DNA from: an uncultured Alphaproteobacteria bacterium | GTDB taxonomy: Bacteria; Pseudomonadota; Alphaproteobacteria; SHVP01 | Reading direction: 5' to 3' | DNA: 64,000 nt | Assembly: GCA_964350495.1 (NCBI GenBank) | Contig: CAYGKG010000005.1 | Coordinates: 25 to 64,024, forward strand | In this document: positions 985-22,541 of the stretch, one piece after another | Layout of the letters: each line of letters starts with the position of its first letter | How positions within the stretch are numbered: the stretch's first letter is position 1 | Position numbers and translations under genes: made by a program | Notes under the pieces: generated by a model | Databases searched by the model: none | What the model saw: the letters and a program-made list of their open reading frames with translations, nothing else | Told to the model about the DNA's origin: nothing

Positions 985-1302
985 ATGGCTTCCACAATGA
1001 CCGACGCACCGCCCTTACCTTCAAGGACACCCAAGGACGTTGCCGTCGCCCTCCGGGGCGAAGGCGCGCAGCTTGGCGAATCCGGTCACGTCGTCGCCTC
1101 CGGTCACGGCGCCGTAGCGCGCCAAATCATCGAGATCGCCGCCCAACACGGCATCGCGATTCGACAGGATGCGGATCTCGCGGAAGTCCTCGCCGTCCTG
1201 GAGACAGATAGTCCCATCCCGCCGGAAGTCATGGCGATCGTGGCGGAAATCTTGGGCTACGTGTACCGCGCAAACAGCGAAACATTAGCAGGTCAATCAT
1301 GA
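985..1302 (+). CDS. Free-standing homolog of the FlhB/YscU C-terminal cytoplasmic domain (COG2257-like), 105 aa
   Basis: QIIEIAAQHGIAIRQDADLAEVLAVLE...IPPEVMAIVAEILGYV resembles the post-NPTH FlhB C-domain (…EHGIPIVEDPPLARALY…EELYEAVAEVLAFV). Confidence 0.6.
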   Translation: MASTMTDAPPLPSRTPKDVAVALRGEGAQLGESGHVVASGHGAVARQIIEIAAQHGIAIRQDADLAEVLAVLETDSPIPPEVMAIVAEILGYVYRANSETLAGQS

Positions 1303-1598
1303 AACACCCTCTTCTCAATCCCGCCGCCGAACTCAAGCAACTAGGCACCCAGATCGACGACGCCCTCGGCGCCGCAAAGGACGGCTTGGCCGTGAACCTG
1401 AGCGATCTAGAGGAGCGGGCAAGCGCGTTGTGCGAGTACCTCTTGGCCCTTCCGGCGCTGGAGGCACGTCCCTATGCCGCGAAGCTGGAACACTTGATTG
1501 CCGGGCTAAACACCCTCGAGGAGGTCATCGCATCGAGCTTCGGCAATTTGGTGGCCAATGCTTCCTCCGCCGGCATCGACCTGCACCCCGGCAAATAG
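1299..1598 (+). CDS. Hypothetical 99-aa protein, start overlaps upstream stop (ATGA), inside flagellar export operon
   Basis: ORF with translational coupling to the FlhB-C-like gene; no recognisable family. Confidence 0.4.
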   Translation: MKHPLLNPAAELKQLGTQIDDALGAAKDGLAVNLSDLEERASALCEYLLALPALEARPYAAKLEHLIAGLNTLEEVIASSFGNLVANASSAGIDLHPGK

Positions 1599-1617
1599 AC
1601 TCCGGATCTGAACCGAC

Positions 1618-2007
1618 ATGGATCTGGATCAGGTCATGCGGGGCCTTCTGGCCCTGGTGTTCGTCCTTGGACTCATCGGCGGGATCGCCTTGTTGGCCAA
1701 ACGGTTTGGCTTCACGCCGCGGGTGACCCTGCCGCGCGGTAGCACCCCGGGAACCCGCAAAACCGCCAGAGGCCGCCGCCTCGGCATTGTCGAGGTCCTA
1801 CCCGTCGACGCGAAGCGGCGCCTGATCTTGATCCGACGCGACGACACCGAGCACCTCGTCCTACTCGGCGCCGACCGAGACATGGTCGTCGAAGCAGGCG
1901 TTCCGGCGCCCGATTCGCTGATCGAAGATGTAGGCGGAGAAACCCTAAGCATTCGCGACGCACTGCGGCGCGGAAATAGCCGGGGAGGCCAAAACGATGC
2001 GGGCTAG
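1618..2007 (+). CDS. fliO: Flagellar biosynthesis protein FliO
   Basis: Single N-terminal TM helix, ~129 aa, immediately upstream of and overlapping fliP. Confidence 0.7.
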
Positions 2008-2758
2008 TCGACTGAGTATGGGGGCCTGGCCGCACGCCATCGCTCTTGCGGCATTGCTCACCGTGCTTGTTGCCGCCGGCCCAGCAGCCGCCCAGGAATT
2101 CTCCCTCGACCTCGGCACCGAGGCCGGCCCACTTACCGGGCGGATCCTCCAGATCATCGCCTTGGTGACGGTCATTGCGCTCGCACCGTCACTGCTTGTC
2201 GTAATGACGTCGTTCACGCGAATCGTCGTGGTCCTGTCACTGCTCAGAAGCGCGATGGGGGTTCAGCAGACGCCGCCCAACGTGGTGATTATCGGCCTCG
2301 CGCTGTTCCTTACCGGCTACGTCATGGCGCCCACCTTCGAAGCTGCCTACCAAGAGGGCATCGTGCCGTTGATCAACGACGAGATCAGCGAAGTCGAGGC
2401 GTTCACGCGAGTCTCCGTGCCCATCCACACCTTCATGCTCGGGCAGGTTCGGGAAAAAGACCTGGGCCTCTTCCTCGATCTTTCCGGTTCGGAGTTGCCG
2501 AGCGAACCGTCGACGACGCCGTTCCGGGCCCTGATACCCGCGTTCTTGATCAGCGAGCTTCGCCGCGCCTTCGAGATCGGGTTCCTCCTCTTCATTCCCT
2601 TCATCATCATCGACATGGTGGTGGCATCGGTACTGATGTCGATGGGCATGATGATGCTGCCCCCAATCCTGATATCCCTTCCCTTCAAACTGGTCTTCTT
2701 CGTTCTTGTGGACGGGTGGAACCTCGTGGCCAATAGCTTGGTGCTTAGTTTCGGGTAG
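1997..2758 (+). CDS. fliP: Flagellar type III export apparatus protein FliP
   Basis: Signal peptide plus conserved FliP core ([24 protein letters not shown]..., MGMMMLPP). Confidence 0.9.
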
Positions 2759-2905
2759 CAGGACCGGCTTCTCTTTGGCTTGTCCACGTCGGCCACGCCC
2801 AATCGTGCACATCCTGGAATCGCCTGACCGCCTCGAGGTATCCCTTGCGTCTTCTACGACAACCGCGTCGAAAAGGACGATCGGTGAAATGACCGTGTGG
2901 GTTTG

Positions 2906-5900
2906 CTAGTTGATGGCGCCGACGCCGTCCTGTTGCAGACCGCTGCGGTAGCGCTCCATGAACGAATCGAGCGTGCTGATTTGCGCAATTCTACTGGAGA
3001 CCTCCCGGAAGCCGATGGAGGCCCGGTCGGGATTCGATGTCAGCACCTCGAAGGCACTGGCGTCCTCGGTCGAGGCCATCAAGGAACCGTAACGCTGCCG
3101 TACCCCGTCGATAGCAGCGCGGTCGTTTGCCAAGGCATAGGCAACCGTCATCTGCATCACCCGGTTGCGCTCGTCCCGGTCGAGGCCGGCACCATCTTGG
3201 TGCCGGCGGCCCAAGACCGCTTCGAACGCCTGGGCCGCCCGCGGCCAGTCGCTGGTGCGCCAGAAAATATCGGCCCGTAGCGTCGCCGCTTCGCTGGAAT
3301 CGTCTTGGGCCAACAGGCGTTGGGCGTCTTCAAATCGCTGCAACTCGATAAAGGCGCGCGCTTGCAAATAGCGCCGCTCCTGGAGCAAGGCACCGGGAAT
3401 TGCACGGAACCGGCTCTTATCGAGCGACTCAAGCGCCTTCTGGGGCTGACGATCGAGCAAATAGATTGCCGCAAGTTTGGCCGCGACCCGAGCCTTCTCG
3501 GCGCCGCGGAGTCGAAAATTCACTTGGAAGTCGATCAGTTCCGCCGCGCGGCCAAGCAGGTCGACCGAGACCAGGCGGTCGGCAAGATTTCGGACCATTT
3601 CGTCGCCATCGCTGCCGACCGGCGTGAGTTCGCGGAAATCGAAGTACAGACCAAGCGCCGCAACCGGCCCGAGTTTCTCCGATTCGCCGTCGAGGTAGAG
3701 ACGGCGGTAAATCGCCTCCATCTCATCGCTCGCTGCCCGCGCTTCGGGCCGGCCCTCAAAGGTGTTCGCAATCGCGCGAAGCGTTTCCAGCGCGGCGCGG
3801 TAGTTCCCGTTGTCCAAATGCAGTGTTTTGAGTCGGACGAGTAAGTCCAGCTCGAACTGGCCGCCACGCCAAACATGCGCCAGCCGCTCCAACTGGTCGA
3901 TGGCGGCGGTGCGGTCTATCTCGCCCTGTTCCAATCGGTAGCTGGCCATCGCGATCTCGGCTTCCGCCCACGTTGGCCGGAACTTCTCCGCGACGACCTG
4001 TTCGAGAAGTTCCAAACCGCCCTCGGCATCGCCCGCCAGTATTCGCGCTTGACCGAGAACCAGTTTGGCTTCGCTAACTTGGGCCTCCGACGCGCCAGGT
4101 TGTCGGTCGAATCCGGTGAGCTCGGCCTGGACGGTGTCGATGTCGTCGATGGCCAACCCGGCCTTCGCCGCCAAAAGCTTGAAGCGCGCTTGCAACGCCG
4201 GTGGGAAGGCCGAGACGGCAAACGAACCGATCGCGAATTCCTGTGCTGCCGCCTCCCATTCGCCGCGTTCTGCGAACAGCGCGCCGCGCCAGAGCGACGC
4301 GCCCGGGTCGGCGCTGAAGGCCGGATCGAGCAAATCCTCCGCAGCCAAGTCGGTCCGCCCCATCAGCAGCCGCGACGCCCCCCGTACCGCCTTGTAGGTC
4401 AGGTCCTGCTGGATCGCCGGATTCTCTCCCGCGAGAACACCGAGGACGCCAAGCGCCTCCGGCGCCATGTTGTGGGCGAAATAGAAACGCGCGAGATCCC
4501 ATTGTGCCTCAGCGCGGCGCGTTTCCGGCGCAGCGGCCAAGGCAAGATTAAGCTCCTGCAGATGTTCGGTATATTCGTCGTCGCTGCCACGGGACCACTC
4601 GGCGTAGCGCAACAGCGTGTCGACCGACGCCAGCACCCCCGCCTCGCCCGCCGCCTCAGGGTCGCCGGCGCCGTCCGCTGCGTGTGCGGATTCGCCATGA
4701 GTTGCCGCCTCTTCAGTGTGGCCGTCATCTGCAGCGGTATCGTCGGCGCCGGCTGTGGGGGCCTCCGCTCGGTGCGGCTGCGGTCCGGCTGCCGCGACTT
4801 GAAGCGGCTCTTGAAGCCCGTCTTCTGAGAGAAACAACCCTTCCGGACCGGTGATCCTTACCAAGCCACCACCAACTGCCAACGTGACGTCGTCGGACCA
4901 CGGCTCGACGGCCACACCCTGGGCGCTCGCGAGAATCCTGAATTGGGCGAACGCGCGCTCGGCCGCGACACCGGCACCCGCTCGGAGCGACGGCACCACG
5001 GCAACGAAATCGCCAACCTCGGGATCGTCGAGTTCGATCTGGCGCCCCGCCTCAGCCAGCGGCAGTGTGACCCGCGCCTGTCCGGCCGCGCCGGCTTCGC
5101 GCCGGATCTCGACCGGATGCGCCGGCGCGGTTGGCGACCGCCGAAAGGCGATGCGCCAGCTTCCACCGACCCGCGACGCCGAAGCAAGCATCAGATCCTG
5201 CTGCACCCGCATACGAACGGCAGTCGCGCCCTCGACCTCCGCGGCTGCGGCAAGAAAAACGATCTCCGCGAGGGACGCCGGGATCTCGGCCACGTCAACA
5301 GCGCCTTCGCTATCGAACACTGCCCACACGAATCCTGCGCGCTCAAAGAATGCCGCAGCAACCGGCCGCTCCCACTCGAACAGAGCGGAGACCACGCCCC
5401 CCTCTTGCACAAAACGAACGCTGAGGTCGCCGGCTCCTTCAGTGTCCGCGGCGTGGCCCGCCGCCGTCTCGCCGTGGGCAGGCGCCCGCGCCCGTTCGAC
5501 AGGGGCCACGGGGACTGCCGGCGGAGGCGCAGGCGCAGGCGCCGCGCCGCGCGCCGGAACGGATTCCGCCGTTGACTGGGTTCGCGCGCCACCTTCGCCC
5601 AGGATATCGACGACGATCGAACGGCCGTTCCGAAAATGACGCACTCGACTGCTGTCCGGCACTTTGAGGGTCGCGGTCGCAGTGTTCTGGGCGCTATCGC
5701 CCGAAGCGGACGCAATCCGCGATAGACGGCCCTCCGCTAACGCGTTCGACATCCCAAAACTGGCGGCGCGGTCGAAACGGATCGAAACCGTATCACCGGT
5801 TTTAACGACTTCGTATCCGACTTCGCCCGGCCAATCGAACACGACCCGGGTGTAGGTATCATGTACGCCGGCGCGAACGCGAACGCTCGGTGCGCTCGTT

Positions 5901-6418
5901 GCCGGCGGCTGAGTTGGTGCCGATTGTCGCGGCCGCGTGGTCTGTTGCGGGGGCGCGCGGCGCGCTGGCTGCGCACCGGGCGCCGGCGGCACTGCGGTCG
6001 TCGTCGATTGCGGCACAGCAAAATCGAAAATGATTGACGAGCCGTTTGCAGTGGTTTTGATCTGAAAGGCGTCGCTCAGGAGGAGCGTAACCGAGCGGCC
6101 GTCTTCCTCAATCCGCGCATCCAACACAATGTCGCCCAAGACCGTCGTGATCGCAGAGAGGTTTGCAACCAACGGTCGGCCGAACTCGATCACAAGCAAA
6201 TCGCCGCCGCCGCGGGCCTCGTAGGGCACCGGTGCCGGCCAGTCGAAAACGATCCGCGCAAAGGTCGGCCCTTGGAAGGCCCTGGCCCGGACGGTTTCCT
6301 GCGAGAGAGCGTCAAGGGGCGTAAGCCCCGCCCAAAGTCCAGCAGCAAGCGCCACGGCCTGCAATAGCCTCGTTACGACACGCATCAACCAGAAATGCTT
6401 TTTATTCGCGGTCGCCAC
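2906..6418 (-). CDS. Large secreted protein: signal peptide, two AMIN-like beta repeats (VFDWP..Y..), Pro/Ala-rich linkers, long C-terminal TPR array; last gene of fliL-fliM operon. True start probably the second Met (about 6385)
   Basis: Signal peptide-like N-terminus (…AVALAAGLWAGLTPLDA|LSQ); internal duplicated ~85-aa repeats; many TPR-like helical repeats. Confidence 0.6.
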   Translation of the reverse strand: MATANKKHFWLMRVVTRLLQAVALAAGLWAGLTPLDALSQETVRARAFQGPTFARIVFDWPAPVPYEARGGGDLLVIEFGRPLVANLSAITTVLGDIVLDARIEEDGRSVTLLLSDAFQIKTTANGSSIIFDFAVPQSTTTAVPPAPGAQPARRAPPQQTTRPRQSAPTQPPATSAPSVRVRAGVHDTYTRVVFDWPGEVGYEVVKTGDTVSIRFDRAASFGMSNALAEGRLSRIASASGDSAQNTATATLKVPDSSRVRHFRNGRSIVVDILGEGGARTQSTAESVPARGAAPAPAPPPAVPVAPVERARAPAHGETAAGHAADTEGAGDLSVRFVQEGGVVSALFEWERPVAAAFFERAGFVWAVFDSEGAVDVAEIPASLAEIVFLAAAAEVEGATAVRMRVQQDLMLASASRVGGSWRIAFRRSPTAPAHPVEIRREAGAAGQARVTLPLAEAGRQIELDDPEVGDFVAVVPSLRAGAGVAAERAFAQFRILASAQGVAVEPWSDDVTLAVGGGLVRITGPEGLFLSEDGLQEPLQVAAAGPQPHRAEAPTAGADDTAADDGHTEEAATHGESAHAADGAGDPEAAGEAGVLASVDTLLRYAEWSRGSDDEYTEHLQELNLALAAAPETRRAEAQWDLARFYFAHNMAPEALGVLGVLAGENPAIQQDLTYKAVRGASRLLMGRTDLAAEDLLDPAFSADPGASLWRGALFAERGEWEAAAQEFAIGSFAVSAFPPALQARFKLLAAKAGLAIDDIDTVQAELTGFDRQPGASEAQVSEAKLVLGQARILAGDAEGGLELLEQVVAEKFRPTWAEAEIAMASYRLEQGEIDRTAAIDQLERLAHVWRGGQFELDLLVRLKTLHLDNGNYRAALETLRAIANTFEGRPEARAASDEMEAIYRRLYLDGESEKLGPVAALGLYFDFRELTPVGSDGDEMVRNLADRLVSVDLLGRAAELIDFQVNFRLRGAEKARVAAKLAAIYLLDRQPQKALESLDKSRFRAIPGALLQERRYLQARAFIELQRFEDAQRLLAQDDSSEAATLRADIFWRTSDWPRAAQAFEAVLGRRHQDGAGLDRDERNRVMQMTVAYALANDRAAIDGVRQRYGSLMASTEDASAFEVLTSNPDRASIGFREVSSRIAQISTLDSFMERYRSGLQQDGVGAIN

Positions 6419-6519
6419 AAACCCCGACCGGTTGTCGACATTGACTAGACGAACAATATCAACAGTTTACGGCACACAGAAGCGATACCGCGCGATGAGG
6501 CAGCGGCAATCGAGCTTCC

Positions 6520-7281
6520 CTAACCGCCGTTGGTGTTCGCGGTAGCGTCCTGCGCTGCAGGCGCGGCGCCATTTTCGCCCGTTTCAAGCCGCTCCGGCAG
6601 CTGTTTGCGGGTCCTGATCTCAGTCGTCACCGTCGTCGCGCGTTGCGGTGTCATCGCCGCCAGAACCGGGGCCAACCGCCGTTCGTTCATCAGTTCGGCG
6701 ACATCAAGCAGGATATCAAGGTCGAGCTCGTTGAAGATTCGCGCGGCTTCCTTGGGCTTCATGGTTTCATAGACGCGAACCAGGCTGCGAAGCTTCCCCT
6801 CTTCCTGGGCATCGTGCTGCTGGATCAGGGAATCGATCTTGGCCTCAATTTGGCGCAACTCGGCGATCTTGTCTTCGATTCGCTTTTCCGCGGCTTCCAA
6901 GAGATTCTCGCGAATATCGAGTTCGCGAGACCGCAGATCCAGCTGTTCACGCCGCGCCGAGAGGTCTTGCAGAAGCTGGACCTCAGCCTCGGTAAAGATT
7001 TGACCGCCGGATTGATCGGCCGGACGGCCGGTATCGTCGGCGCTGGACTGGGTCAATGCATCGTCATCCGCCGACTCGCTGCCGGCCGCCGATTCGCCGG
7101 TCCCACCAGCATCGTCGGCAAAGGGGTCTTCTTCGGTGGCCGCTTCAGCGGCCTGCGCGGTCTGGACCGTCAGAGGAGATCCAAATCGCTCCACCTCCGA
7201 CCACATCCCCGTGACCTTGACGCCAAACGCGGCAAAGGCGAGGGCGATGACGACCGGCAGAAGGCGAACTCGACGGAGCAT
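6520..7281 (-). CDS. MotE-like flagellar protein (N-terminal TM/signal, acidic region, coiled coil, MgtE_N-like C-terminus)
   Basis: KPKEAARIFNELDLDILLDVAELMNERRLAPVLAAM resembles the MgtE intracellular N-domain found in MotE/FlbB-type proteins. Confidence 0.5.
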   Translation of the reverse strand: MLRRVRLLPVVIALAFAAFGVKVTGMWSEVERFGSPLTVQTAQAAEAATEEDPFADDAGGTGESAAGSESADDDALTQSSADDTGRPADQSGGQIFTEAEVQLLQDLSARREQLDLRSRELDIRENLLEAAEKRIEDKIAELRQIEAKIDSLIQQHDAQEEGKLRSLVRVYETMKPKEAARIFNELDLDILLDVAELMNERRLAPVLAAMTPQRATTVTTEIRTRKQLPERLETGENGAAPAAQDATANTNGG

Positions 7282-7290
7282 GAATATCCT

Positions 7291-7743
7291 CTAGCGCGCT
7301 TGCTGGAGCGCAACCATTAATTGGCGTTCGCTTTCGCTGGCAGTGCGGGCGATTGCCTTGCCGGCACCGGTCGCGCCTTTTCGTTTCGGGACCGATCGTT
7401 TCGGCGCGGGCTCAATCGGTCGAGCCTGCTCGTCGATCGACGCGTCGAGCCTCTCCGCGAGCGATTGCGCAGCCTGGGTCACGTAGACAAGGTCGCCCTT
7501 CAGGGCACGGGCTTCGTCGATCCGCTCGCCAAGGGCGTTGGAAAGTTCGCTTCCGGTCGCTTTGATCGACAGGAGTCCGGCCTGCGCTCGCTCGGTTGCC
7601 GAGGTGAACTCGGTCATCAGTTTCTTCATCGTCGCACTCGAACGACGAACTTCATTGAGACGCGCGTACAGAACGACGCAATATCCGATCGTAATCAACA
7701 AAAGAGTGGCGACGGCGCCATCCAGGAGAACCGGGAGATCCAT
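7291..7743 (-). CDS. Hypothetical membrane-anchored coiled-coil protein (150 aa) between fliM and the MotE-like gene
   Basis: N-terminal TM helix then helical region; start overlaps the fliM stop. Confidence 0.45.
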   Translation of the reverse strand: MDLPVLLDGAVATLLLITIGYCVVLYARLNEVRRSSATMKKLMTEFTSATERAQAGLLSIKATGSELSNALGERIDEARALKGDLVYVTQAAQSLAERLDASIDEQARPIEPAPKRSVPKRKGATGAGKAIARTASESERQLMVALQQAR

Positions 7744-8849
7744 CAGTTCCTATCCTCGTTCCTAATCTGATCCGTAACGCGAATTGCCATGGTGCTGCCG
7801 ACCCGACCCATGCGACCGACAAGAAGCGGCACGCCGCCGCACCGGAGTTCGACCTCTGATTCGCGCGTGCAGTTGAACATGACGGTGTCGCCGACCTCGA
7901 GATCCATGACCTTGCCCAACTTCATGACCATGTCATCCAACACGGCTTCGATTTGCACCTCGGTGTACCAAAGCTCGGTCGCCAAATGGCCTTCCCAGAT
8001 GGAATCGCGGCCGAACTTCTCGCCCATGAACATCTGCAGCAGAAGCTCGCGTACGGGCTCGAGTGTGGCGTAGGGCAACAACAGTTCAATGCGACCGCCG
8101 CGATCCTCCATATCGACCCGAAGGCGAATGAGAATGGCGGCGTTTGCGGGCCGGGCGATGGTGGCAAAACGCGGATTGGTTTCTAGGCGGTCGTAGACGA
8201 AGGTCACCGGGCTCAACGGCTCGAACGCGGCGCTTAGGTCGTGCAGGACGACCTCAACCATGGTCTCGACCAGGGAACGTTCGATGGTGGTATAGGGACG
8301 GCCTTCGATTCGCATCGCCGCCGTTCCCCGCCGACCGCCCAATAGGACATCGACGATCGAGTAGATCAGCGACGAATCGACGGTCAACAGGCCGTAGTTG
8401 TCCCACTCTTGGGCCCGGAACACGCCGAGGATCGCGGGCAGCGGAATCGAGTTCAAGTAGTCGCCGAAACGGATCGAGGTAATGTTGTCGAGCGACACCT
8501 CGACGTTGTCGGACGTGAAGTTGCGCAGCGACGTCGTCATCATGCGAACAAGGCGGTCAAAGACCACCTCGAGCATCGGCAGGCGTTCGTAAGAAACCAG
8601 CGCAGAGTTGACAATTGCCCGGATACCGGTGCGTTCGGAGTCGTCGCCAAAACCGGAATCGAACCCAAGAAGGTTGTCGATCTCGTCCTGATTGAGAACG
8701 CGGCCCGATGCGTCGTCGCCGCCGGCGAGCTCATCCCATTCCGATGCGACGTCGGCATCGGCGGTACCGCCACCCTCTTCCTCTTGGAGCGCTTTCTCCC
8801 ACTCGGCGGCAATATCGTCCGCTGGGGCATCGGTATCCGTGTTCGCCAT
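7743..8849 (-). CDS. fliM: Flagellar motor switch protein FliM
   Basis: N-terminal LNQDEIDNLLGF (CheY-P binding motif) and FliM middle domain. Confidence 0.85.
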   Translation of the reverse strand: MANTDTDAPADDIAAEWEKALQEEEGGGTADADVASEWDELAGGDDASGRVLNQDEIDNLLGFDSGFGDDSERTGIRAIVNSALVSYERLPMLEVVFDRLVRMMTTSLRNFTSDNVEVSLDNITSIRFGDYLNSIPLPAILGVFRAQEWDNYGLLTVDSSLIYSIVDVLLGGRRGTAAMRIEGRPYTTIERSLVETMVEVVLHDLSAAFEPLSPVTFVYDRLETNPRFATIARPANAAILIRLRVDMEDRGGRIELLLPYATLEPVRELLLQMFMGEKFGRDSIWEGHLATELWYTEVQIEAVLDDMVMKLGKVMDLEVGDTVMFNCTRESEVELRCGGVPLLVGRMGRVGSTMAIRVTDQIRNEDRN

Positions 8850-8860
8850 TTCGCCGCCGC

Positions 8861-9457
8861 CTATTGGACCAGCAATTCGCTGAACAACACGTCGCTCACT
8901 TTAACCGGATCGACCGCTCGGTTGGTGCGCGATAACAATTCCTGCTTCAAGCGAAACAGGCCCGCCGAACCGCTGAGATCGTCGAGCCGCAATTCGCGCA
9001 TGTAGACCTGAAAGTTGTCGATGACCCGCGGCAACATCGCGTCAAGCTGGGCACGCGTTTCCGGCGTGTCGTTGGCGAGCTCAAGCGAGACCGTCAGGCG
9101 CAAGAACGACGTTGTTCCGTCGGTAGTATTCAAATTGACGGTCATTTGTGGGAGCTCATAGAAACCCACATGACCGGCGCTATGTTCACCCTCGGCGCCG
9201 TGCTCGCCACCGCCTTCACCGCCCTCACCGCCGTGGGATTCCTCAGCTGCGGCCGCTTCTTCGTCGGCGCCACCGCCAAAAGGTCCAATACCCATGACCA
9301 CAGCGCCAACGACAAGAAGGATAATGACGAGGAGCGGCGCCGCGATAAGAATGATGAGGCGTTTGCGCCCCTTCTTCTTTGGCCGACCTTCACCGTCATC
9401 ATCGCCATCGTCATCCGGAGGAACATCGTCGATATCTTCGTCGTCGGTATCGCTCAT
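8861..9457 (-). CDS. fliL: Flagellar basal body-associated protein FliL
   Basis: Acidic N-terminus, single TM, FliL C-terminal domain (FYELPQMTVNLN...). Confidence 0.8.
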   Translation of the reverse strand: MSDTDDEDIDDVPPDDDGDDDGEGRPKKKGRKRLIILIAAPLLVIILLVVGAVVMGIGPFGGGADEEAAAAEESHGGEGGEGGGEHGAEGEHSAGHVGFYELPQMTVNLNTTDGTTSFLRLTVSLELANDTPETRAQLDAMLPRVIDNFQVYMRELRLDDLSGSAGLFRLKQELLSRTNRAVDPVKVSDVLFSELLVQ

Positions 9458-9535
9458 GTATTCGTTTCCAGTTCGCTGATGGGAACGCTTTGCGCGACCG
9501 CCGCTTTGTTGTTCCGAGAGCCTAGGCGCATATCG

Positions 9536-9550
9536 TTAACAACTCGTTGA
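9536..9550 (-). promoter_or_regulatory. CtrA-like site TTAA-N7-TTGA (one mismatch) about 80 nt upstream of fliL
   Basis: TTAACAACTCGTTGA in the fliL/flgF divergent intergenic region. Confidence 0.3.
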
Positions 9551-9712
9551 AATCGGACGGCGACGCCCGCGCCAAAGATAGCAGAATCGGTCGATGCCGA
9601 CACCGGAGCGGCAAGTTTCTCCCGGCAAGCCGTGCCGGAACAGGCGCCCATCGCCGACCTTCCAGCCCGGCCCTAAAGAGCTAAGCCTCTGAAAAAAATC
9701 ATACTTTTCGAT

Positions 9713-9727
9713 TGGCACAGCCGATGC
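9713..9727 (+). promoter_or_regulatory. sigma54-type promoter TGGCAC-N5-ATGC about 80 nt upstream of the flgF ATG
   Basis: GG/GC spacing of the -24/-12 consensus. Confidence 0.5.
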
Positions 9728-9807
9728 AGAGTGTCGGCTGCCTCAGGTGGGCGCCTTCAATCGTTAGAGCGGATCCAAAACGGATCGGCTGGCAAGGGAA
9801 GAAGGGT

Positions 9808-10533
9808 ATGGAAAACACCTCGTACATTGGCCTGTCGCGCCAAATCGCGCTAGGCCGCCAACTCGATCTGATCGCGAACAACGTCGCGAATATGAACTCT
9901 GCGGGGTTCAAGGGCGAACGTGCGATCTTCGAAGAGTTTCTCGTCAAGACGAGCGACCGCAAGAAGCTGTCCTACGTACAGGACCGCGGTATTTGGCGGG
10001 ACACGAAGGAAGGTCCAATGCAACGGACCGGCAACCCCTTCGATGTCGCGTTAAAGGGCGAAGCCTTCTTCGTCGTCGGCACGACCGACGGCCCCCGCTA
10101 CACCCAGAACGGACGGTTCCAGCTCGACGGCGACGGCACGCTTGTTACCCAGTCCGGTTTCCCGGTCCTGGACGAACGCGGCGATCCGGTCGTGATCGAC
10201 CCGCTCGATGGCGCGATCACGTTCTCAGCGGAGGGCGCTGTCATCGGAGACCTCGGGGAAATCGCGAGACTCCAACTGGTCAGCTTCGAAAACCTGCAGG
10301 GCATGCTCAAGATCGGCGACAGTCTCTATAACACCGAGCAAGAGCCTCAGGAACCGCAAGGCGTCCAAGTTCTCCAAGGGATGTTCGAGGGTTCGAACAT
10401 CCAGGGCATCGTCGAAATGACGCGCATGATGGATGTCGTGCGTGCCTACACCTCGACCGCCAGCATGATGCAAACCAACCACGACCTCCAGCGTCGCGCC
10501 GTCGAAAAGCTGGGCGAAGTGGTCTCCGCGTAA
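9808..10533 (+). CDS. flgF: Flagellar basal-body rod protein FlgF
   Basis: MENTSYIGLSRQIALGRQLDLIANNVANMNSAGFK rod N-terminal motif; RBS GGGAAGAAGGG. Confidence 0.85.
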   Translation: MENTSYIGLSRQIALGRQLDLIANNVANMNSAGFKGERAIFEEFLVKTSDRKKLSYVQDRGIWRDTKEGPMQRTGNPFDVALKGEAFFVVGTTDGPRYTQNGRFQLDGDGTLVTQSGFPVLDERGDPVVIDPLDGAITFSAEGAVIGDLGEIARLQLVSFENLQGMLKIGDSLYNTEQEPQEPQGVQVLQGMFEGSNIQGIVEMTRMMDVVRAYTSTASMMQTNHDLQRRAVEKLGEVVSA

Positions 10534-10557
10534 CAACACTAAACAGAGGATAACGCC

Positions 10558-11346
10558 ATGACGAGGTCCCTTAGCATCGCTGCCACAGGCATGCTGGCCC
10601 AACAACTCAACGTCGAGGTGATTTCTAACAACATCGCCAACTTGAACACGACTGGCTTCAAGCGCCAGCGGGCGGAGTTTCAGGATCTGATCTACCAGAA
10701 CCAGCTGCGTGTCGGATCGACCTCGACCGACGGCGGCTCGATCGTGCCGGCGGGCATCCAGCTTGGCACCGGCGTCAACGCCGGCGCGGTTTATCGCATC
10801 ACCGAGCAGGGTTCGGTGGTTCAGACCGGCAACACCTACGACCTCGCAGTCCAGGGCAAAGGTTACTTCCGCGTCGTCCTTCCGGACGGCCAGGAAACCT
10901 ACTCCCGAGCCGGTTCGTTCCAGCTATCGCCCACCGGCGAGATCGTAACCCAGGACGGGTTTCAGGTTTCACCGGGTGTAACGGTGCCGGCCGACGCTGT
11001 CGGCGTCACCATCAACCAGTCGGGCGAAGTCCTGGTCTCCATCGACGGACAGGTCGATCCCACAAACGTCGGGCAGCTTGAACTTGTCACCTTCCCGAAC
11101 GAGGCCGGACTAGAGGCGGTTGGCGACAACCTCTTCCTCGAAACCCCAGCGTCCGGCGCTGCAACCGTCGGCACGCCCGGAACCGGCGGCGTGGGCACCG
11201 TGCTTCAGGGATTTCTCGAAACCGCCAACGTCAACCCGGTCTCGGAAATCACCAATCTGATCACCGCCCAGCGCGCTTACGAAATGAACTCCAAGGTCAT
11301 TACCGCATCCGACGAAATGCTGCGGACAATCAGCAACCTTAGATAG
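10558..11346 (+). CDS. flgG: Flagellar basal-body rod protein FlgG
   Basis: MTRSLSIAATGMLAQQLNVEVISNNIANLNTTGFKRQRAEFQDL. Confidence 0.9.
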   Translation: MTRSLSIAATGMLAQQLNVEVISNNIANLNTTGFKRQRAEFQDLIYQNQLRVGSTSTDGGSIVPAGIQLGTGVNAGAVYRITEQGSVVQTGNTYDLAVQGKGYFRVVLPDGQETYSRAGSFQLSPTGEIVTQDGFQVSPGVTVPADAVGVTINQSGEVLVSIDGQVDPTNVGQLELVTFPNEAGLEAVGDNLFLETPASGAATVGTPGTGGVGTVLQGFLETANVNPVSEITNLITAQRAYEMNSKVITASDEMLRTISNLR

Positions 11347-11373
11347 CGAGGCGCCCGAAACGGCGATAGCTCC

Positions 11374-12339
11374 ATGAATATGAAACGCCCCCTCTTCCTC
11401 TTTGTTTGCGCGACGCTGGTCGCGGGCTGGCCGCTGTTCGCCGGCGCCGCACCGCAGCTCCGTTCGCCGATTGTTGTCGAGGGGCCGAATCTGACACTCG
11501 GCGACATCTTCGAAGATGCCGGTGGCGCGGCAAACGTGCGAGTCGGTCCGTCGCCGCAACCGGGCGAACGCACGGTGATTCGCCCCGGAACGCTTGCGCG
11601 TTTTGCCAAGCAACACGGCTTGGCGTGGACACCGGGACCGGCCGTTACCGCGGTCATCGTTCGGCGATCGAGCACAACCCTGGCCGAAGACGACGTTCGT
11701 ATCGTGTTGCGCCAGGCTCTGCGCGATCAGGGTATCCGCGGCCAATTCGATATCGACCTAAGGACGCGGGGATTCGACGTCGCGTTGCCGGCCGACAGCC
11801 TCATCGACCTGGAGGTCGATCGGCTGTCCTACGACCCTTCGAGCGGGCGCTTCACCGCCTTGCTCCGGGTTAGCGGCGAGGACTTCGCGACCCAAGAAAT
11901 CGCGCTCGACGGCACCGCGCATTCGATTGTGGAAATTCCAGTGACGACCCGCGGCGTTGCGAAGGGTGAAATCATCTCGGAGTCGGATGTCGCCTGGGTG
12001 GAAATCCGCGCCGACGGTATTCGCCGGCAAACCGCGACCGAGCTCGACCAAATCGTCGGGCAGGAAGCAAAGCGGCAAATCCGAGCGGATACGCCAATAC
12101 GCGTCGGCGATGTCTGGGCCCCGCGGCTCGTCCGCAAGGGCGATCTCGTCACCCTCTCGGTCCACACCCGATTCATGCTGCTCCAAACCAACGGTCAGGC
12201 GCTGGAGGACGGCGCCCTCAACGAGGTCGTCAGGATCTTGAACCTCAAAAGCAAGAAGACCGTCCAGGGCGTCGTCAGCGGCGAGGGTGAAATTCGGATC
12301 CCGCACAACACCGCCAATCAGCTCATCGCGACCAACTAG
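11374..12339 (+). CDS. flgA: Flagellar P-ring formation chaperone FlgA
   Basis: Signal peptide, SAF-type C-terminal domain, position between flgG and flgH. Confidence 0.7.
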   Translation: MNMKRPLFLFVCATLVAGWPLFAGAAPQLRSPIVVEGPNLTLGDIFEDAGGAANVRVGPSPQPGERTVIRPGTLARFAKQHGLAWTPGPAVTAVIVRRSSTTLAEDDVRIVLRQALRDQGIRGQFDIDLRTRGFDVALPADSLIDLEVDRLSYDPSSGRFTALLRVSGEDFATQEIALDGTAHSIVEIPVTTRGVAKGEIISESDVAWVEIRADGIRRQTATELDQIVGQEAKRQIRADTPIRVGDVWAPRLVRKGDLVTLSVHTRFMLLQTNGQALEDGALNEVVRILNLKSKKTVQGVVSGEGEIRIPHNTANQLIATN

Positions 12340-12360
12340 CGTCGGAAAAGGAATATTCCC

Positions 12361-13125
12361 ATGCCCCTCCCCTCCACCCGCCACATTCGCAACGTTTCGC
12401 TGGCGCTGGCGTTGGCGACGACCCTCAGCGCCTGCAACGCGGTCAATCGAATGGCCCAAATCGGCACGGTGCCCCCGATCACACCGATCGAAAACCCGAC
12501 CCAAGCACCCGGTTACCGCGTCGTGAGCCTGCCGATGCCCGATCCGACCAACGACAGCTTTATGTCCAATTCGCTGTGGCGGCAGGGCGCCCGCGCGTTC
12601 TTCAAGGATCAGCGCGCGTCCCGCGTCGGCGACATTCTGACGGTGGTCATCAACATCAACGATCAAGCCTCGTTCGACAACGAAACCGAAAGAACCCGCG
12701 AGAACACCGAGGACTCGGACGTCACAAACCTTTTCGGTCTTGAGTCCCAACTCGAGAAGCGGCTCCTGCCGGAAGCTTTCAACCCGGCCAGCGCCTTGAG
12801 CCTTGGCAGCACCTCCAAGTCGAAGGGTGCCGGTAAAGTCGATCGCTCGGAAGCGCTTAGCATCACAGTGGCCGCAATCGTTACCCAGGTCCTTCCCAAC
12901 GGTAATCTGGTGATTCAGGGCCGCCAGGAGGTTCGCGTCAATTTCGAGGTCCGCGAATTGCTGGTCGCCGGTGTCGTCAGACCCGAAGACATCACCGCCA
13001 TCAACCAGATCCAACACACGCAGATTGCTGAAGCACGTATTTCCTACGGCGGACGCGGGCAACTAACGGATGTGCAGCAGCCTCGCTACGGTCAGCAGGT
13101 TCTGGATATTCTGTTCCCGTTCTAG
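12361..13125 (+). CDS. flgH: Flagellar L-ring lipoprotein FlgH
   Basis: Lipoprotein signal (LSAC), conserved FlgH core (ITVAAIVTQVLPNGNLVIQGRQEVRVNFE). Confidence 0.85.
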   Translation: MPLPSTRHIRNVSLALALATTLSACNAVNRMAQIGTVPPITPIENPTQAPGYRVVSLPMPDPTNDSFMSNSLWRQGARAFFKDQRASRVGDILTVVININDQASFDNETERTRENTEDSDVTNLFGLESQLEKRLLPEAFNPASALSLGSTSKSKGAGKVDRSEALSITVAAIVTQVLPNGNLVIQGRQEVRVNFEVRELLVAGVVRPEDITAINQIQHTQIAEARISYGGRGQLTDVQQPRYGQQVLDILFPF

Positions 13126-13210: not shown

Positions 13211-14152
13211 CTACTCGTCGCGGTAGACGCGCTCCCGGCGCTCGTGCCGCTCTTGCGCTTCGATGCTCAGCGTTGCGATCGGACGCGCTTCAAGGCGTTT
13301 TAGGCCGATTGGCTCGTCGGTTTCCTCGCAATAGCCATAGGTCCCATCGACGATTCGGCCAAGCGCGGCATCGATCTTCGAAATCAGTTTTCGCTCGCGA
13401 TCGCGGGTGCGCAGTTCGAGGGAGCGATCGGACTCGGCGGACGCGCGGTCCGCTAGGTCGGGCTCCGACAGACTCGTCTCCTGGAGGTGCGCGAGGGTCT
13501 GGGTCGATTCCCGCAATAACTCGGCGCGCCAGTCGAGCAACTTGTTCTTGAAGTACGCCAATTGCTTGGGATTCATGAACGGCTCTTTTTCAGTCGGCTC
13601 ATAGTTTTTGGGAACGCGTGCGCGGGTATGCAACTGCGCCCGTTTACGCCGTTCCTCATCGGCCAATCGAGCCCGTTCGGCTGCAGCGACCTTAGAATCC
13701 TTGACGCGATCGAGCTCGTCTTGTTCGCGTTTCGCACTCGTCGCGCGCTTGGCCCTAGCGGTCCGAGGTTTATCGGACGCGCTCTTGCTCGGTACCGCGG
13801 CCTTGCGCTCCTTTGGCGCACTTGATCGCGCCGCAGCTTTTTTGACGGCTGCCTTGAGCGATTTGACCGCAGCTTTTGGCGCCTTCGGTTTAGCAGCAAC
13901 GCGTTTGCTCGGCGCCGGTTTGGCTTTCCGCGCTGGCGCCGCCTTTTTTACGGGGGCCGCTTTTTTTGCGGAAACTGACGCCTTCTTCGCCGGCGCTTTC
14001 TTCGGCGCCGGCGTCTTCCGCGTCGGCGCCTTTTTGGCAGACCGTTTCGGCTTGGGCGCGACCTTCTTGGAGGCTGCGCGGGCCGGCTTTTTCTTGGCCG
14101 GCTTCCCCTTGGTCTTTGAGACTGACTTTCGCGCCATCGTTCTGCTTGCCAT
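13211..14152 (-). CDS. dksA: DksA/TraR-family RNA polymerase-binding factor with a ~180-aa Lys/Ala/Pro-rich histone-H1-like N-terminal extension (start placed at the RBS-supported ATG, 14152)
   Basis: C-terminal 130 aa align to DksA (NPKQLAYFKNKLLDWRAELL...ELRTRDRERKLISKIDAALGRI...GYCEE...GLKRLEARPIATLSIE); N-terminal AKKAAPAKK repeats; only one Cys, so no C4 zinc finger. Confidence 0.75.
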   Translation of the reverse strand: MASRTMARKSVSKTKGKPAKKKPARAASKKVAPKPKRSAKKAPTRKTPAPKKAPAKKASVSAKKAAPVKKAAPARKAKPAPSKRVAAKPKAPKAAVKSLKAAVKKAAARSSAPKERKAAVPSKSASDKPRTARAKRATSAKREQDELDRVKDSKVAAAERARLADEERRKRAQLHTRARVPKNYEPTEKEPFMNPKQLAYFKNKLLDWRAELLRESTQTLAHLQETSLSEPDLADRASAESDRSLELRTRDRERKLISKIDAALGRIVDGTYGYCEETDEPIGLKRLEARPIATLSIEAQERHERRERVYRDE

Positions 14153-14285
14153 CAGTTCCCCGAAGCCTAGTGATACCGAAAAGACACACTTCGCCAAAAG
14201 GCGCCGCAGTATAAGGACGGGACCGCCGCCCCACAAGGGATGCCAGGAGGGTGCCTAAAGCTTTGTATTTGGCGGAAATATGCCT

Positions 14286-17487: not shown

Positions 17488-17943
17488 TCAGCTCGCAAGT
17501 GCTGCGCGCTGTAGTATGGGAGGACTTTCCCTGTCTTGTTCGTCTTCTTGCGGTACGTAGTTGAGCCTCGCCTCCTCAAACGGGAACAACTTCTTGCACG
17601 TACTCAGAGCGCGGTAATAGCTTCCCTTCTGGACGTCAGCCAGAATGTTGGCGCATTGTGCCCGTGCTTCCCGGTCCTTGATCGCCCCTAGAAACTCGTC
17701 CAGGCGTCGCTCGAAGAGCTGGAGGTAAGCACCGCTGTTGGAATCGTCCAGATACAACATTTGGATGGCGAAGTAGATCCGGCGCACCGGCGTACTCGCA
17801 TCGCCCTCCTGCATCACGTCCTTCTCGCGAAGGATCGAGACGTTGTTCTGAATGAGTAGGTGAGAGCGGCGTTCACCGTTGACGACAACTGCGCCATTGA
17901 TGACAAACCGTTCCCGCGGCTTAAGAGTGAGCTTTAGAGCCAT
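17488..17943 (-). CDS. flbT: Flagellin synthesis regulator FlbT (copy 1)
   Basis: MALKLTLKPRERFVINGAVVVNG N-terminus typical of FlbT. Confidence 0.8.
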   Translation of the reverse strand: MALKLTLKPRERFVINGAVVVNGERRSHLLIQNNVSILREKDVMQEGDASTPVRRIYFAIQMLYLDDSNSGAYLQLFERRLDEFLGAIKDREARAQCANILADVQKGSYYRALSTCKKLFPFEEARLNYVPQEDEQDRESPPILQRAALAS

Positions 17944-18144: not shown

Positions 18145-18966
18145 TTACTGGAAGAGGCCCAGGATGGTCTGCGGACCCGCATTGGCAATGGCGAGCGACT
18201 GCACGCCGAGCTGCTGCTGGATCTGCAACGCCTGCAAAGTGGCCGATTCTTGGGCAAGGTCAGCGTCGACCAAGTTACCCAGACCTTCGGTCAAGATGTT
18301 GACGAGAGAAGTGGTAAAGTCGGTTTGAACCTCGATCCGCTTCGCGGCGGCACCGAGGGCAGCAAGCTTATCCGCGACAGAAGTGATCGCGGAGTCGATT
18401 GCCGTAAGCGCGGTAGAAGCGCCAGCACTGGTGGAAAGATCCGTTGAAGCGATCCCAAGCGACGACGACGCCATTGCTTGAGCGCTCACGGTGATCGTGC
18501 TGCCTTCGGCCGTGCTAAGGACCGACGTGTTCGTCGCCCCAGAGCTGATCAGGTTGACCGAGTTGAACTCGGCCGTCGCAACGATCGTGTCGAGCTGATC
18601 GCGCAACGCCTTGAAATCGTTCTGCAACGCGGTGCGCGATGCAGAATCAAGACCTGCCTGATTTGCCTGAACGACCTTCGCCTTCATCTCGACCAGCAGG
18701 TCGGCAATCGCTTTGCCACCCGAGATCGCAACGTTGGTCACGGCTTCACCATTCGCCAAGGCGATTTTCACCGCGTTGGTGCCGGCGATGTCGCCCCGAA
18801 GCCGCGTCGCAATCTGAAAGGTTGCGGCATCGTCTTTGGGGCCGTTCACTTTCAGACCCGTGGTAATCCGGAGCTGAGTCCTTTGCAGCCTCTTCTGTGT
18901 TAGAGAAAGCTGCTCCAACGCGACCATAGCGCCGGAATTGGTGTTGATAGACAGTCCTTGAACCAT
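18145..18966 (-). CDS. Flagellin (273 aa, short Caulobacter-type, Ser/Thr-rich central region)
   Basis: Conserved flagellin N- and C-terminal helices (LSINTN..., ...LQIQQQLGVQSLAIANAGPQTILGLFQ). Confidence 0.9.
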   Translation of the reverse strand: MVQGLSINTNSGAMVALEQLSLTQKRLQRTQLRITTGLKVNGPKDDAATFQIATRLRGDIAGTNAVKIALANGEAVTNVAISGGKAIADLLVEMKAKVVQANQAGLDSASRTALQNDFKALRDQLDTIVATAEFNSVNLISSGATNTSVLSTAEGSTITVSAQAMASSSLGIASTDLSTSAGASTALTAIDSAITSVADKLAALGAAAKRIEVQTDFTTSLVNILTEGLGNLVDADLAQESATLQALQIQQQLGVQSLAIANAGPQTILGLFQ

Positions 18967-19070: not shown

Positions 19071-19892
19071 TTACTGGAAGAGAGCCAGAATGGTCTGCGG
19101 ACCAGCGTTCGCGATGGAGAGCGACTGCACCCCAAGCTGCTGCTGAATCTGCAAGGCCTGCAATCTTGCACTCTCTTCGGCGAGATCGGCGTCGACCAGG
19201 TTTCCGAGGCCTTCGGTCAAGATATTGACCAAGGACACCGTGAAGTCTGTCTGCACTTCGATCCGCTTCGCAGCGGAACCAAGAGCGGCCAGCTTGTCGG
19301 CAACCAACGTAATCGCCGTTTCGATCGACGTTAGAGCCGAGGAAGCACCAGAGCTTGTCGCCAAGGTCGCCGCGTTGATCGTCAGCGTGGTGGTGTCCAT
19401 CTTTTGGGCGCTCACCGAAATGACCGAGCCATCGACGGTGCTGAGAACCTTGAGTTCGCTCGCGCTCTGAAAGATCAGATTGGTCGAGTTGAACTCAGCG
19501 GTGGCAACGATGGTTTCCAACTGATCGCGCAATGCCGTGAAGTCGTTCTGCAAGGCAGTACGTGACGCAGTATCGAGACCGGCCTGGTTGGCCTGCACGA
19601 TTTTCGCCTTCATTTCGATAAGCAGGTCGGCGATAGCCTTTCCGCCCGAAATAGCGACGTTAACGGTGGAATCACCGTTCGCGAGAGCGCCACCGACGGC
19701 CTTTGTGCCGGCAATATCGCCCCGCAGACGAGTCGCGATTTGGAAGGTCGCAGCGTCGTCTTTCGGGCCGTTAACTTTCAAGCCCGTCGTAATGCGAAGC
19801 TGCGTGTTCTGCAGCCTCTTGTTCGTCATGCTGAGTTGTTCCAACGCGACCATCGCGCCGACGTTGGTTTTAATAGAAAGACCTTGAACCAT
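19071..19892 (-). CDS. Flagellin (273 aa), close paralog of flagellin 1
   Basis: About 85% identical to the neighbouring copy at N and C termini; divergent centre. Confidence 0.9.
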   Translation of the reverse strand: MVQGLSIKTNVGAMVALEQLSMTNKRLQNTQLRITTGLKVNGPKDDAATFQIATRLRGDIAGTKAVGGALANGDSTVNVAISGGKAIADLLIEMKAKIVQANQAGLDTASRTALQNDFTALRDQLETIVATAEFNSTNLIFQSASELKVLSTVDGSVISVSAQKMDTTTLTINAATLATSSGASSALTSIETAITLVADKLAALGSAAKRIEVQTDFTVSLVNILTEGLGNLVDADLAEESARLQALQIQQQLGVQSLSIANAGPQTILALFQ

Positions 19893-21725: not shown

Positions 21726-22541
21726 TTATTGGAACAGCGACAGAATGATCTGCGGGGTCGCATTGGCGATCGATAGCGCCTGTACGCCCAGCTGCTGCTT
21801 GACCTGGAGTGCCGTCAGATTGGCGCTCTCCCGGGCCATGTCGGCATCCACGAGGTTGCCCACACCATCTGTAAGGATGTCCACCAGCTTGACCGTGAAC
21901 TCGGTCTGAACCTCCAGCCGCTTGGCCGAGGCACCGAGCGCCGCGAGGCGATCGGAGACCGACACGATAGCCGAGTTGACCGCTGTCAACGCCGCGCTGG
22001 CACCGGAACTGGTGAGCAGGGTGGTTGTATTGATCGCGAGACTCGTCGTGTCCATCTTCTGCGCGCTGACATTGATGATACTGCCGTCGACAGTACTCAA
22101 CACTTGGAACGTCACCGCGCTTTGGTTGATGATGTTGACGCCGTTGAATTCGGCCGTAGCGACGATCGTTTCAATTTGATCGCGCAACGCCGCGAAGTCG
22201 TTATGCAGCGCCGTTCGTGATGCCGCGTCGAGCTGGGATTGATTCGCCTGCACGACTTTGGCCTTCATTTCGATCATCAACTCGGAGATTGCCTTGCCGG
22301 CGTCGATTGCGACGTTAACAGTGGATTCTCCGCCTGCCAGTGCTGTGCCGACCGCTCGATAGCCGGCAATGTCACCGCGTTGGTTTTGGGCGATCGCATA
22401 AGTCGCTGCGTCGTCCTTCGGTCCGTTCACGCGCAGACCGGTCGTAATGTTCAGCTGGGTCTTCTCCAGCCTATTGTTTGTCGCGTTTAGATTCTGGAGA
22501 GCAATCGCCGCTCCCAGATTGGTATTTACCGACAAGACCAT
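21726..22541 (-). CDS. Flagellin (271 aa), more divergent third paralog
   Basis: Flagellin N/C helices (...LQVKQQLGVQALSIANATPQIILSLFQ). Confidence 0.9.
   Translation of the reverse strand: MVLSVNTNLGAAIALQNLNATNNRLEKTQLNITTGLRVNGPKDDAATYAIAQNQRGDIAGYRAVGTALAGGESTVNVAIDAGKAISELMIEMKAKVVQANQSQLDAASRTALHNDFAALRDQIETIVATAEFNGVNIINQSAVTFQVLSTVDGSIINVSAQKMDTTSLAINTTTLLTSSGASAALTAVNSAIVSVSDRLAALGASAKRLEVQTEFTVKLVDILTDGVGNLVDADMARESANLTALQVKQQLGVQALSIANATPQIILSLFQ

Follow-up and report, generated by a model that had tools for sequence, protein, structure and literature searches.

A candidate long MotK/PflA-like periplasmic protein encoded with PflI-like and MotE-like proteins behind fliL and fliM in an uncultured alphaproteobacterium

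Here, we analysed a flagellar gene cluster in a 64,000-nucleotide stretch of DNA from an uncultured alphaproteobacterium (GenBank assembly GCA_964350495.1, contig CAYGKG010000005.1, positions 25 to 64,024 of the forward strand; hereafter called the window), in which a run of five genes ends with a gene for a giant tetratricopeptide repeat (TPR) protein. The five open reading frames (ORFs) lie consecutively, head to tail, on the minus strand (2906-9457), beginning with fliL and fliM and continuing with genes for a 150-amino-acid (aa) protein, a MotE-like protein and the giant protein. A first-pass annotation, made from the sequence alone, had described them as a fliL-fliM run extended by three envelope genes, and all of these ORFs are present. 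For the giant protein, we computed how its domains are arranged, which folds it resembles and which genes are conserved around its own. The three envelope genes match a flagellar accessory set already described for alphaproteobacteria, which consists of a PflI-like protein, MotE and a large protein of the PflA/MotK kind.

FliL is recognised by PF03748 (E 7.5e-19, Pfam) and scores under the cutoffs of the NCBIfam FliL models. FliM matches PF02154 (E 1.4e-67) together with FliMN_C in Pfam and reaches 316.6 bits against TIGR01397 of NCBIfam, above the cutoff of 219.6. The genes are tightly packed, with 11 nt between fliL and fliM, an overlap of fliM with the gene of the 150-aa protein and 9 nt from there to the motE-like gene; the 101-134 nt gap ahead of the giant gene is the sole exception.

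Table 1 Features of the gene run in the window and of the conserved intergenic block in three related loci.
Feature	Position	Strand	Remarks
fliL	8861-9457	minus	198 aa
fliM	7743-8849	minus	368 aa
PflI-like (DUF6468) gene	7291-7743	minus	150 aa
MotE/FlgY-like gene	6520-7281	minus	253 aa
Conserved intergenic block, gap between motE-like and giant genes	6440-6495	minus	candidate internal promoter or RNA element
Block in relative L001	about 9935-9970
Block in relative L002	about 9835-9868
Block in relative L003	about 9935-9970
Giant ORF	2906-6418	minus	1170 codons; GTG at 6418
Giant protein, three AMIN-like domains, beta-sandwich and TPR	2906-6385	minus	1159 aa from M12 (most likely start)
Putative signal peptide, aa 12-37	6308-6385	minus	MRVVTR, LLQAVALAAGLWAGL, TPLDALS/QE; from sequence
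AMIN-like domain 1, aa 40-135	6014-6301	minus	eight beta-strands; pLDDT >90
AMIN-like domain 2, aa 178-273	5600-5887	minus	weak PF24837 match at aa 179-206
Pro/Ala-rich disordered linker, aa 276-326	5441-5593	minus	pLDDT <50; GC-rich DNA
AMIN-like domain 3, diverged, aa 330-428	5135-5431	minus	matches domains 1 and 2
Fourth beta-sandwich, aa 436-528	4835-5113	minus	packs on domain 3; invariant DPEVGD motif
Acidic/Ala/His-rich disordered linker, aa 533-598	4625-4822	minus	pLDDT <50
C-terminal TPR-like alpha-solenoid, aa 600-1165	2924-4621	minus	invariant WRG(D/G) motif at aa 850-852

For the giant protein, the most likely start is the ATG at 6385, since M12 of the 1170-codon frame is near-invariant across 39 homologs and a database protein 99% identical to it (P0001) is 1159 aa long. 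The upstream GTG is disfavoured, and the 1170 aa given in the first-pass annotation are corrected accordingly. The N-terminus is tripartite (MRVVTR, 15 hydrophobic residues, ALS/QE), and the helix predicted at aa 11-31 is the lone helix before the beta-domains. This segment reads as a Sec signal peptide ending at ALS/QE, by which the giant protein would be exported to the periplasm.

A full-length model was computed with AlphaFold2 from a 39-sequence alignment (mean predicted local distance difference test score, pLDDT, 82; 745 residues above 90). Three AMIN-like domains and a fourth beta-sandwich are predicted, with a first disordered linker at aa 138-173 (pLDDT <50) and two further ones listed in Table 1, followed by an all-helical solenoid of ~565 aa with pLDDT of about 90 or higher. 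The Pro/Ala linkers and the long TPR array of the first-pass annotation correspond to these linkers and this solenoid. Its GC-rich Pro-Ala stretch at about 5400-5600 was located to the DNA of the Pro/Ala linker, where the guanine-cytosine (GC) fraction is up to 0.77 (5400-5549) and a GGCGCA micro-repeat (x3.8) occupies 5520-5542.

The same annotation had noticed two VFDWP repeats, and these hold up: domains 1 and 2 share 32% identity by BLASTP (aa 40-136 vs 176-275, E 1e-13) and match each other in a profile-profile comparison (hhalign, E 5e-29). A third, diverged AMIN-like copy (aa 329-428; profile-profile E 1.7e-10 and 1.2e-11 against the first two) and an unrelated fourth beta-domain had been missed. 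Structure prediction, which had been suggested there for the N-terminal repeats, was run and yielded AMIN-like folds, with domain 1 eight-stranded. For domain 4, profile-profile comparison gave no similarity to domains 1-3. Modelled alone, domains 3 and 4 (aa 327-532) reach a pLDDT of 95.8 and a predicted template modelling score of 0.92, and D465, G469 and G501 of domain 4 are invariant among the 39 homologs. AMIN-like is matched by 18 of these homologs and AMIN by four.

The 150-aa protein, described earlier as a transmembrane coiled-coil protein downstream of fliM, matches DUF6468 (PF20072, E 2.2e-15, Pfam) and has the layout of a bitopic protein, with an N-terminal transmembrane helix, a coiled-coil region and a Pro/Lys-rich tail. 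The published architecture of PflI, a positioning factor in Caulobacter, is the same (PMC3792480), and pflI of Cereibacter sphaeroides is located between fliL2 and motE (PMC10954123). In related loci, too, the DUF6468 gene occupies the slot between fliM and motE. Matched on architecture and gene slot, the protein is a PflI-like inner-membrane protein.

The next gene encodes a protein with an N-terminal hydrophobic helix (MLRRVR and a hydrophobic stretch), an acidic low-complexity region, a coiled coil and an MgtE_N/ARM-like domain. The MgtE_N-type domain named in the first-pass annotation was recovered just above its gathering score (PF03448, 26.9 bits vs 25.9, aa 168-222, Pfam), and the heptad-rich part at about aa 97-160 gives weak matches to the coiled-coil families RNase_Y_N and OVT1. 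Against the NCBIfam model collar_FlbB (NF047368), the protein scores E 2.2e-7 and 30.8 bits vs a cutoff of 110; it was rejected as an equivalog of spirochaete FlbB at this score and is related to FlbB. Its comparison with PDB sequences returned zero matches. Judged by its sequence, it is a MotE/FlgY homolog of the COG3334 E-ring class.

To get hints on the fold of the giant protein, its model was compared with the PDB using Foldseek. The top match was chain K of 9hmf (E 1.3e-10, 916 aligned columns), a chain of 773 residues in the in-situ periplasmic motor scaffold of Campylobacter jejuni, whose length fits PflA without its signal peptide. PflA has 16 TPR motifs, which a linker connects to a beta-sandwich at the N-terminus (PMC12222027). 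The PflA of C. jejuni and Helicobacter pylori is thus the best solved-structure match and, like the window protein, carries an N-terminal beta-sandwich (called AMIN in PMC11870540), an unstructured linker and a long TPR superhelix. Its partner is the MgtE_N protein FlgY of the E-ring, and it scaffolds the stators (PMC12222027, PMC12054838).

Relatives of the giant protein fall into 123 homolog clusters of about 1000-1290 aa, with sources that include Azospirillum, Terasakiella, Thalassospiraceae and Roseococcus, and all are annotated as hypothetical or TPR proteins. A survey of 79 loci was performed with one genome per species and a 12-sequence alignment, the neighbours being identified by tblastn with the window proteins; counts of upstream genes are limited to the 56 loci for which 4.5 kb or more of upstream sequence was available. 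Some flagellar neighbour was present in 71 of the 79 loci. The usual layout has flgH-flgA-flgG-flgF on one strand, fliL-fliM-(DUF6468)-MotE-like-...-giant on the other and fliP-fliO convergent on it. Upstream of the giant gene we found a MotE-like gene in 52/56 loci, fliL in 50/56 and fliM in 49/56; cheY and/or cheZ stand between motE and the giant gene in 38/56, and a motB-like gene directly precedes it in 36/56. The synteny with fliL, fliM, DUF6468 and motE spans Rhodospirillales-type, Acetobacteraceae, Micavibrio-type and Bradyrhizobium genomes, and distant homologs in the same layout come from Sediminicoccus, Bradyrhizobium and one further genome. A search started from one homolog (P0099) reached Micavibrio, Nitrospirillum and Bradyrhizobium.

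In Thalassospira, the insert before the giant gene comprises cheY, cheZ, a gene for a MotB_plug-only protein and one for a MotB_plug+OmpA protein; the window and its closest relatives are without the cheY/cheZ/motB-like insert. An example lies at 7364-10016 of locus L023, and the insert recurs in about 36 other loci, among them L006, L009, L031 and L048. The inserted motB-like pair encodes proteins of ~282 aa (MotB_plug only) and ~240 aa (MotB_plug and OmpA). The Bradyrhizobium homolog is 1248 aa long and belongs to a fliM-DUF6468-253 aa ... giant-fliP cluster (L087 1-13051), which is split by ~6 kb with genes for a cadherin-like protein of 1133 aa and a protein with a FecR domain.

The C-terminal TPR part also occurs alone. 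With tblastn against plasmids, it was detected within flagellar clusters on replicons of Salipiger, Erythrobacter, Sphingobium and Azospirillum. The Salipiger-type proteins from flagellar clusters of Roseobacteraceae/Rhodobacterales measure about 620 aa (e.g. 618 aa) and lack an AMIN domain. A profile comparison with the giant family gave a probability of 99.9% and E 1.6e-32 over 483 columns (hhalign), and the WRG(D/G) motif is common to both families. When the Salipiger-type alignment was used for an exhaustive profile search, 1991 representatives passed E <= 0.001 and 138 passed E <= 1e-30. Members of this wider family are about 550-1250 aa long; the conserved domain is always C-terminal, the N-terminal extension is variable, and the number of N-terminal AMIN-like domains ranges from zero to three. 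In Rhodobacterales-like clusters, genes for members of 823-842 aa stand directly before motA and motB, with flgE, flgK and flagellin coming next (L086 7001-11419 and the JGI contig of P0218). Linkage to stator genes is recurrent across the wider family. A search from a Salipiger relative reached Roseobacteraceae only, and the cluster names of 20 representatives were Salipiger, Tabrizicola and Sulfitobacter, with no Cereibacter or Caulobacter among them. The Tabrizicola and Salipiger proteins were rejected as MotK orthologs because their cluster layout differs (flgF, X, flgE, flgK).

Which known systems does the module resemble? In the Fla2 system of C. sphaeroides, the operon fliL2-pflI-motE-motA2-motK encodes the periplasmic proteins MotE and MotK, which interact with each other as well as with MotB2 and are found at the flagellated pole; both are essential for rotation and dispensable for assembly, so that mutants are flagellated but paralysed (PMC10954123, published in 2024). 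MotK (RSWS8N_12065, Q3IY86) is 652 aa long; its signal peptide and its N-terminal AMIN-like domain, which is eight-stranded, are accompanied by disordered Pro-rich regions, and the rest of the protein is TPR-like (PMC10954123). It shares this order of parts with the window protein, and it likewise is alphaproteobacterial, its gene lying behind motE in an operon that starts with fliL and includes a pflI homolog. In contrast to MotK with its single AMIN-like domain, the window protein has 1159 aa, three AMIN-like domains and an extra beta-sandwich; C. sphaeroides further differs in that motE and motK are separated by motA2 and the operon lacks fliM. The authors of that study also remarked on large genes of the MotK kind after motE in Caulobacteraceae (PMC10954123). 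The gene order reported for Caulobacter crescentus agrees with the window, with a large PflA-like gene (CC_2058) after motE (CC_2059) in the fliL operon and PflI as CC_2060. CC_2059 has 264 aa and a transmembrane motif, its window counterpart 253 aa and an N-terminal hydrophobic helix. CC_2059 has been proposed to build the E-ring and CC_2058 to be its PflA-like spoke partner (PMC11870540, PMC13023049). More generally, the MgtE_N proteins FlgY, FlbB, MotE and CC_2059 are assigned to the E-ring (PMC11870540, 2025; PMC13023049, a 2026 review) and the TPR proteins PflA, FlcB, MotC, MotK and CC_2058 to its partners (PMC11870540, PMC13023049); an E-ring of FlgY/MotE with TPR partners of the PflA class is likewise described in PMC12054838. 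The first-pass annotation had considered such a module undescribed for alphaproteobacteria, which does not stand in view of the MotE/MotK study and the Caulobacter proposals. The window protein is set apart from MotK and PflA by its size and its expanded N-terminal domain array.

From analogy and gene context, we consider it fairly probable that the giant protein is a peptidoglycan-anchored TPR spoke of the PflA/MotK type, which together with a MotE E-ring holds the stators. FliL and FliM are core motor parts, and the MotE-like protein would dimerise and build a periplasmic E-ring around the MS-ring. Exported via its signal peptide, the giant protein would grip peptidoglycan with its three AMIN-like domains and bridge part of the periplasm with its long flexible linkers, while its TPR solenoid would form radial spokes in contact with both the MotE ring and the periplasmic portion of MotB. 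Such contacts would recruit or hold stator units and in this way allow the flagellum to rotate. Export, peptidoglycan binding, the contacts with MotE and MotB and the effect on rotation are all modelled on published work on MotK, MotE, PflA and FlgY. We prefer a stator scaffold working with MotE because of the domain architecture, the top match to PflA, the MotE-like synteny in 52 of 56 loci and the motB-like neighbours. The earlier suggestion of a periplasmic PflA-like scaffold that works with the MotE-like protein and is tied to fliLM thus gains support from both the PflA match and the synteny.

Several observations weigh against this reading. The Foldseek TM-scores (template modelling scores) to PflA are low (0.13-0.18), unrelated TPR proteins follow close behind (E 1e-8), and similarity to PflA at the sequence level is absent, as a profile search of PDB sequences gave generic TPR proteins and BamD only. 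Given the low TM-scores and the nearby generic TPR proteins, the predicted likeness to PflA is a resemblance of architecture, short of proven homology. Kinship with MotK and CC_2058 was judged from gene position and architecture, by description only; for CC_2058 this is because our homolog searches, which reached Bradyrhizobium, Micavibrio and Acetobacteraceae, listed no Caulobacter protein. Moreover, the Pfam matches of the giant protein itself lie under the gathering thresholds (AMIN-like, PF24837, 19.2 bits vs a cutoff of 27; TPR_16 also sub-threshold), no motA or motB was found in the 64-kb window using Thalassospira MotB-like queries, and two homologs (L056, L057) adjoin mutY and have no flagellar gene in the surrounding 9-10 kb.

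Could the giant protein instead regulate the stators as a soluble factor? Sinorhizobium meliloti MotC is a periplasmic TPR protein that acts with MotB, depends on MotE, which stabilises it, and is encoded after motB (PMC13023049, PMC10954123). By analogy, the TPR part of the giant protein would bind periplasmic MotB and set stator activity or speed, MotE would mainly be a chaperone, and there would be no fixed spoke. The position of the giant gene directly after motB-like genes in 36 of 56 loci and the TPR-only relatives without AMIN, such as the 618-aa Salipiger type, would suit this arrangement. By description, MotC nevertheless differs from the window protein, being much shorter, free of AMIN domains and encoded after motB rather than motE. 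The three AMIN-like domains favour fixed anchoring to the cell wall over a diffusible factor, the best structural match is the PflA spoke, and the finding that MotE-sfGFP reaches the flagellum independently of MotK (PMC13023049) opposes a chaperone-only role of MotE. We therefore regard a MotC-like regulator as unlikely.

A platform for flagellum placement or cell-wall remodelling appears to us less likely still. Here, the AMIN part would target a peptidoglycan site, e.g. at the pole, and the TPR part would recruit assembly factors such as lytic enzymes or proteins of the PflI/TipF type, not stators. The acidic linker and TPR layout presumably recall those of polar organisers. The PflI-like neighbour gene, with PflI as a positioning factor in Caulobacter (PMC3792480), speaks for this function, as does the role of AMIN domains in placing complexes of the periplasm at particular positions on the wall (cited in PMC10954123). 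Yet the flagellated, paralysed MotK and MotE mutants of C. sphaeroides have a rotation defect and not one of assembly or placement (PMC10954123), and the giant protein has no membrane span after its signal peptide and so could not touch cytoplasmic landmarks directly. A further alternative, an unrelated TPR protein of the envelope (Tol-Pal CpoB/YbgF or BamD type, for example) that stands among flagellar genes by chance, is hardly credible despite a weak sub-threshold tol_pal_ybgF match, a BamD match at E about 1e-4 and the two homologs in non-flagellar neighbourhoods, as gene order is kept across at least 70 loci from several alphaproteobacterial orders and genes of the C-terminal domain family repeatedly share operons with motA/motB and flagellar genes.

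The long form of the family invites a bolder idea, which we regard as speculative and rather doubtful. With three AMIN-like domains, the DPEVGD beta-sandwich and three linkers, it might build a larger peptidoglycan-anchored structure than MotK or PflA, for example a wide cage retaining additional or paralogous stator B subunits in a distinct high-torque motor, with domain 4 as a new stator- or P-ring-binding module. The idea draws on the MotB_plug-only and MotB/OmpA genes just before the giant gene in many relatives. The long form occurs in Rhodospirillales-type genomes, Bradyrhizobium and the window organism.

The giant gene may be co-transcribed with fliLM, as the first-pass annotation supposed. 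The gap ahead of it contains a conserved block of ~45 nt (core GGTATCGCTTCT ... CTNTTGATATTGTT), which is near-identical in the window and in L001-L003, although the proteins of these relatives are just 58-66% identical. The core occurs a single time in the window and is absent from more distant loci. A short hairpin is possible in the 5' part of the block, with paired substitutions (CGGUA/UGCCG vs GUGGU/GCCAC). This block may be a separate promoter or RNA element and leaves room for the giant gene to have one of its own. Its reading as a sigma-54 promoter was dropped because, by eye, it misfits the GG-N10-GC spacing. A promoter and terminator scan of 2600-9800 gave zero promoter-like sites, a result with no bearing either way on co-transcription; the terminator-like sites in this region are all intragenic and no commoner than in shuffled sequence. 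An Rfam scan of the entire window returned no matches. About 80 nt upstream of the fliL start, TCAACGAGTTGTTAAC (9535-9550, minus strand) differs from the CtrA box TTAA-N7-TTAAC by a single mismatch; it recurs in L002 and is absent from L001 and L003, and we considered a box seen in the window and L002 only too weak to build on.

The gene run is embedded in further flagellar genes. On the plus strand, an FlhB-C-like ORF, a FliO-like ORF and fliP (985-2758) are convergent on the giant gene, and flgF, flgG, flgA and flgH (9712-13125) are divergent from fliL; flgI, flbT and three flagellin genes lie farther along the window. Upstream of fliP (985-2007, plus strand), a 105-aa ORF corresponds to the C-terminal part of FlhB only (PF01312) and is accompanied by a 99-aa ORF without family match and the weak FliO-like ORF, a trio that is kept in related loci. 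Adjoining flbT (17488-17943) and the flagellin genes (18145-18966, 19071-19892 and 21726-22541), a plus-strand gene (22892-25852) encodes a protein of 986 aa that combines a family-41 glycosyltransferase domain with a long TPR array and could be a flagellin glycosyltransferase. A dksA-like ORF (13211-14236, minus strand) spans 341 aa from a TTG; since its DksA domains are confined to aa 225-333, the true gene is probably much shorter, compared with a 145-aa DksA in L083. The homologs next to mutY (L056 8345-11353, L057 9533-12499) are ~1000 aa long, align from about residue 281 and lack the first two AMIN-like domains. Besides mutY, their neighbours are uvrC, murJ or ABC-transport genes, and they could represent a non-flagellar offshoot of the giant family or a relocated gene.

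The window module opens no new class of system. The three genes can be named PflI-like, MotE and MotK/PflA-like, and a large uncharacterised family, with members in Azospirillum, Thalassospira, Rhodospira, Bradyrhizobium and many uncultured alphaproteobacteria, is now tied to the E-ring/spoke model of complex flagellar motors. If the larger cage were true, it would amount to a distinct high-torque motor design within the alphaproteobacteria. The range from zero to three AMIN-like domains within the family provides a handle on how periplasmic motor scaffolds grow by domain addition.

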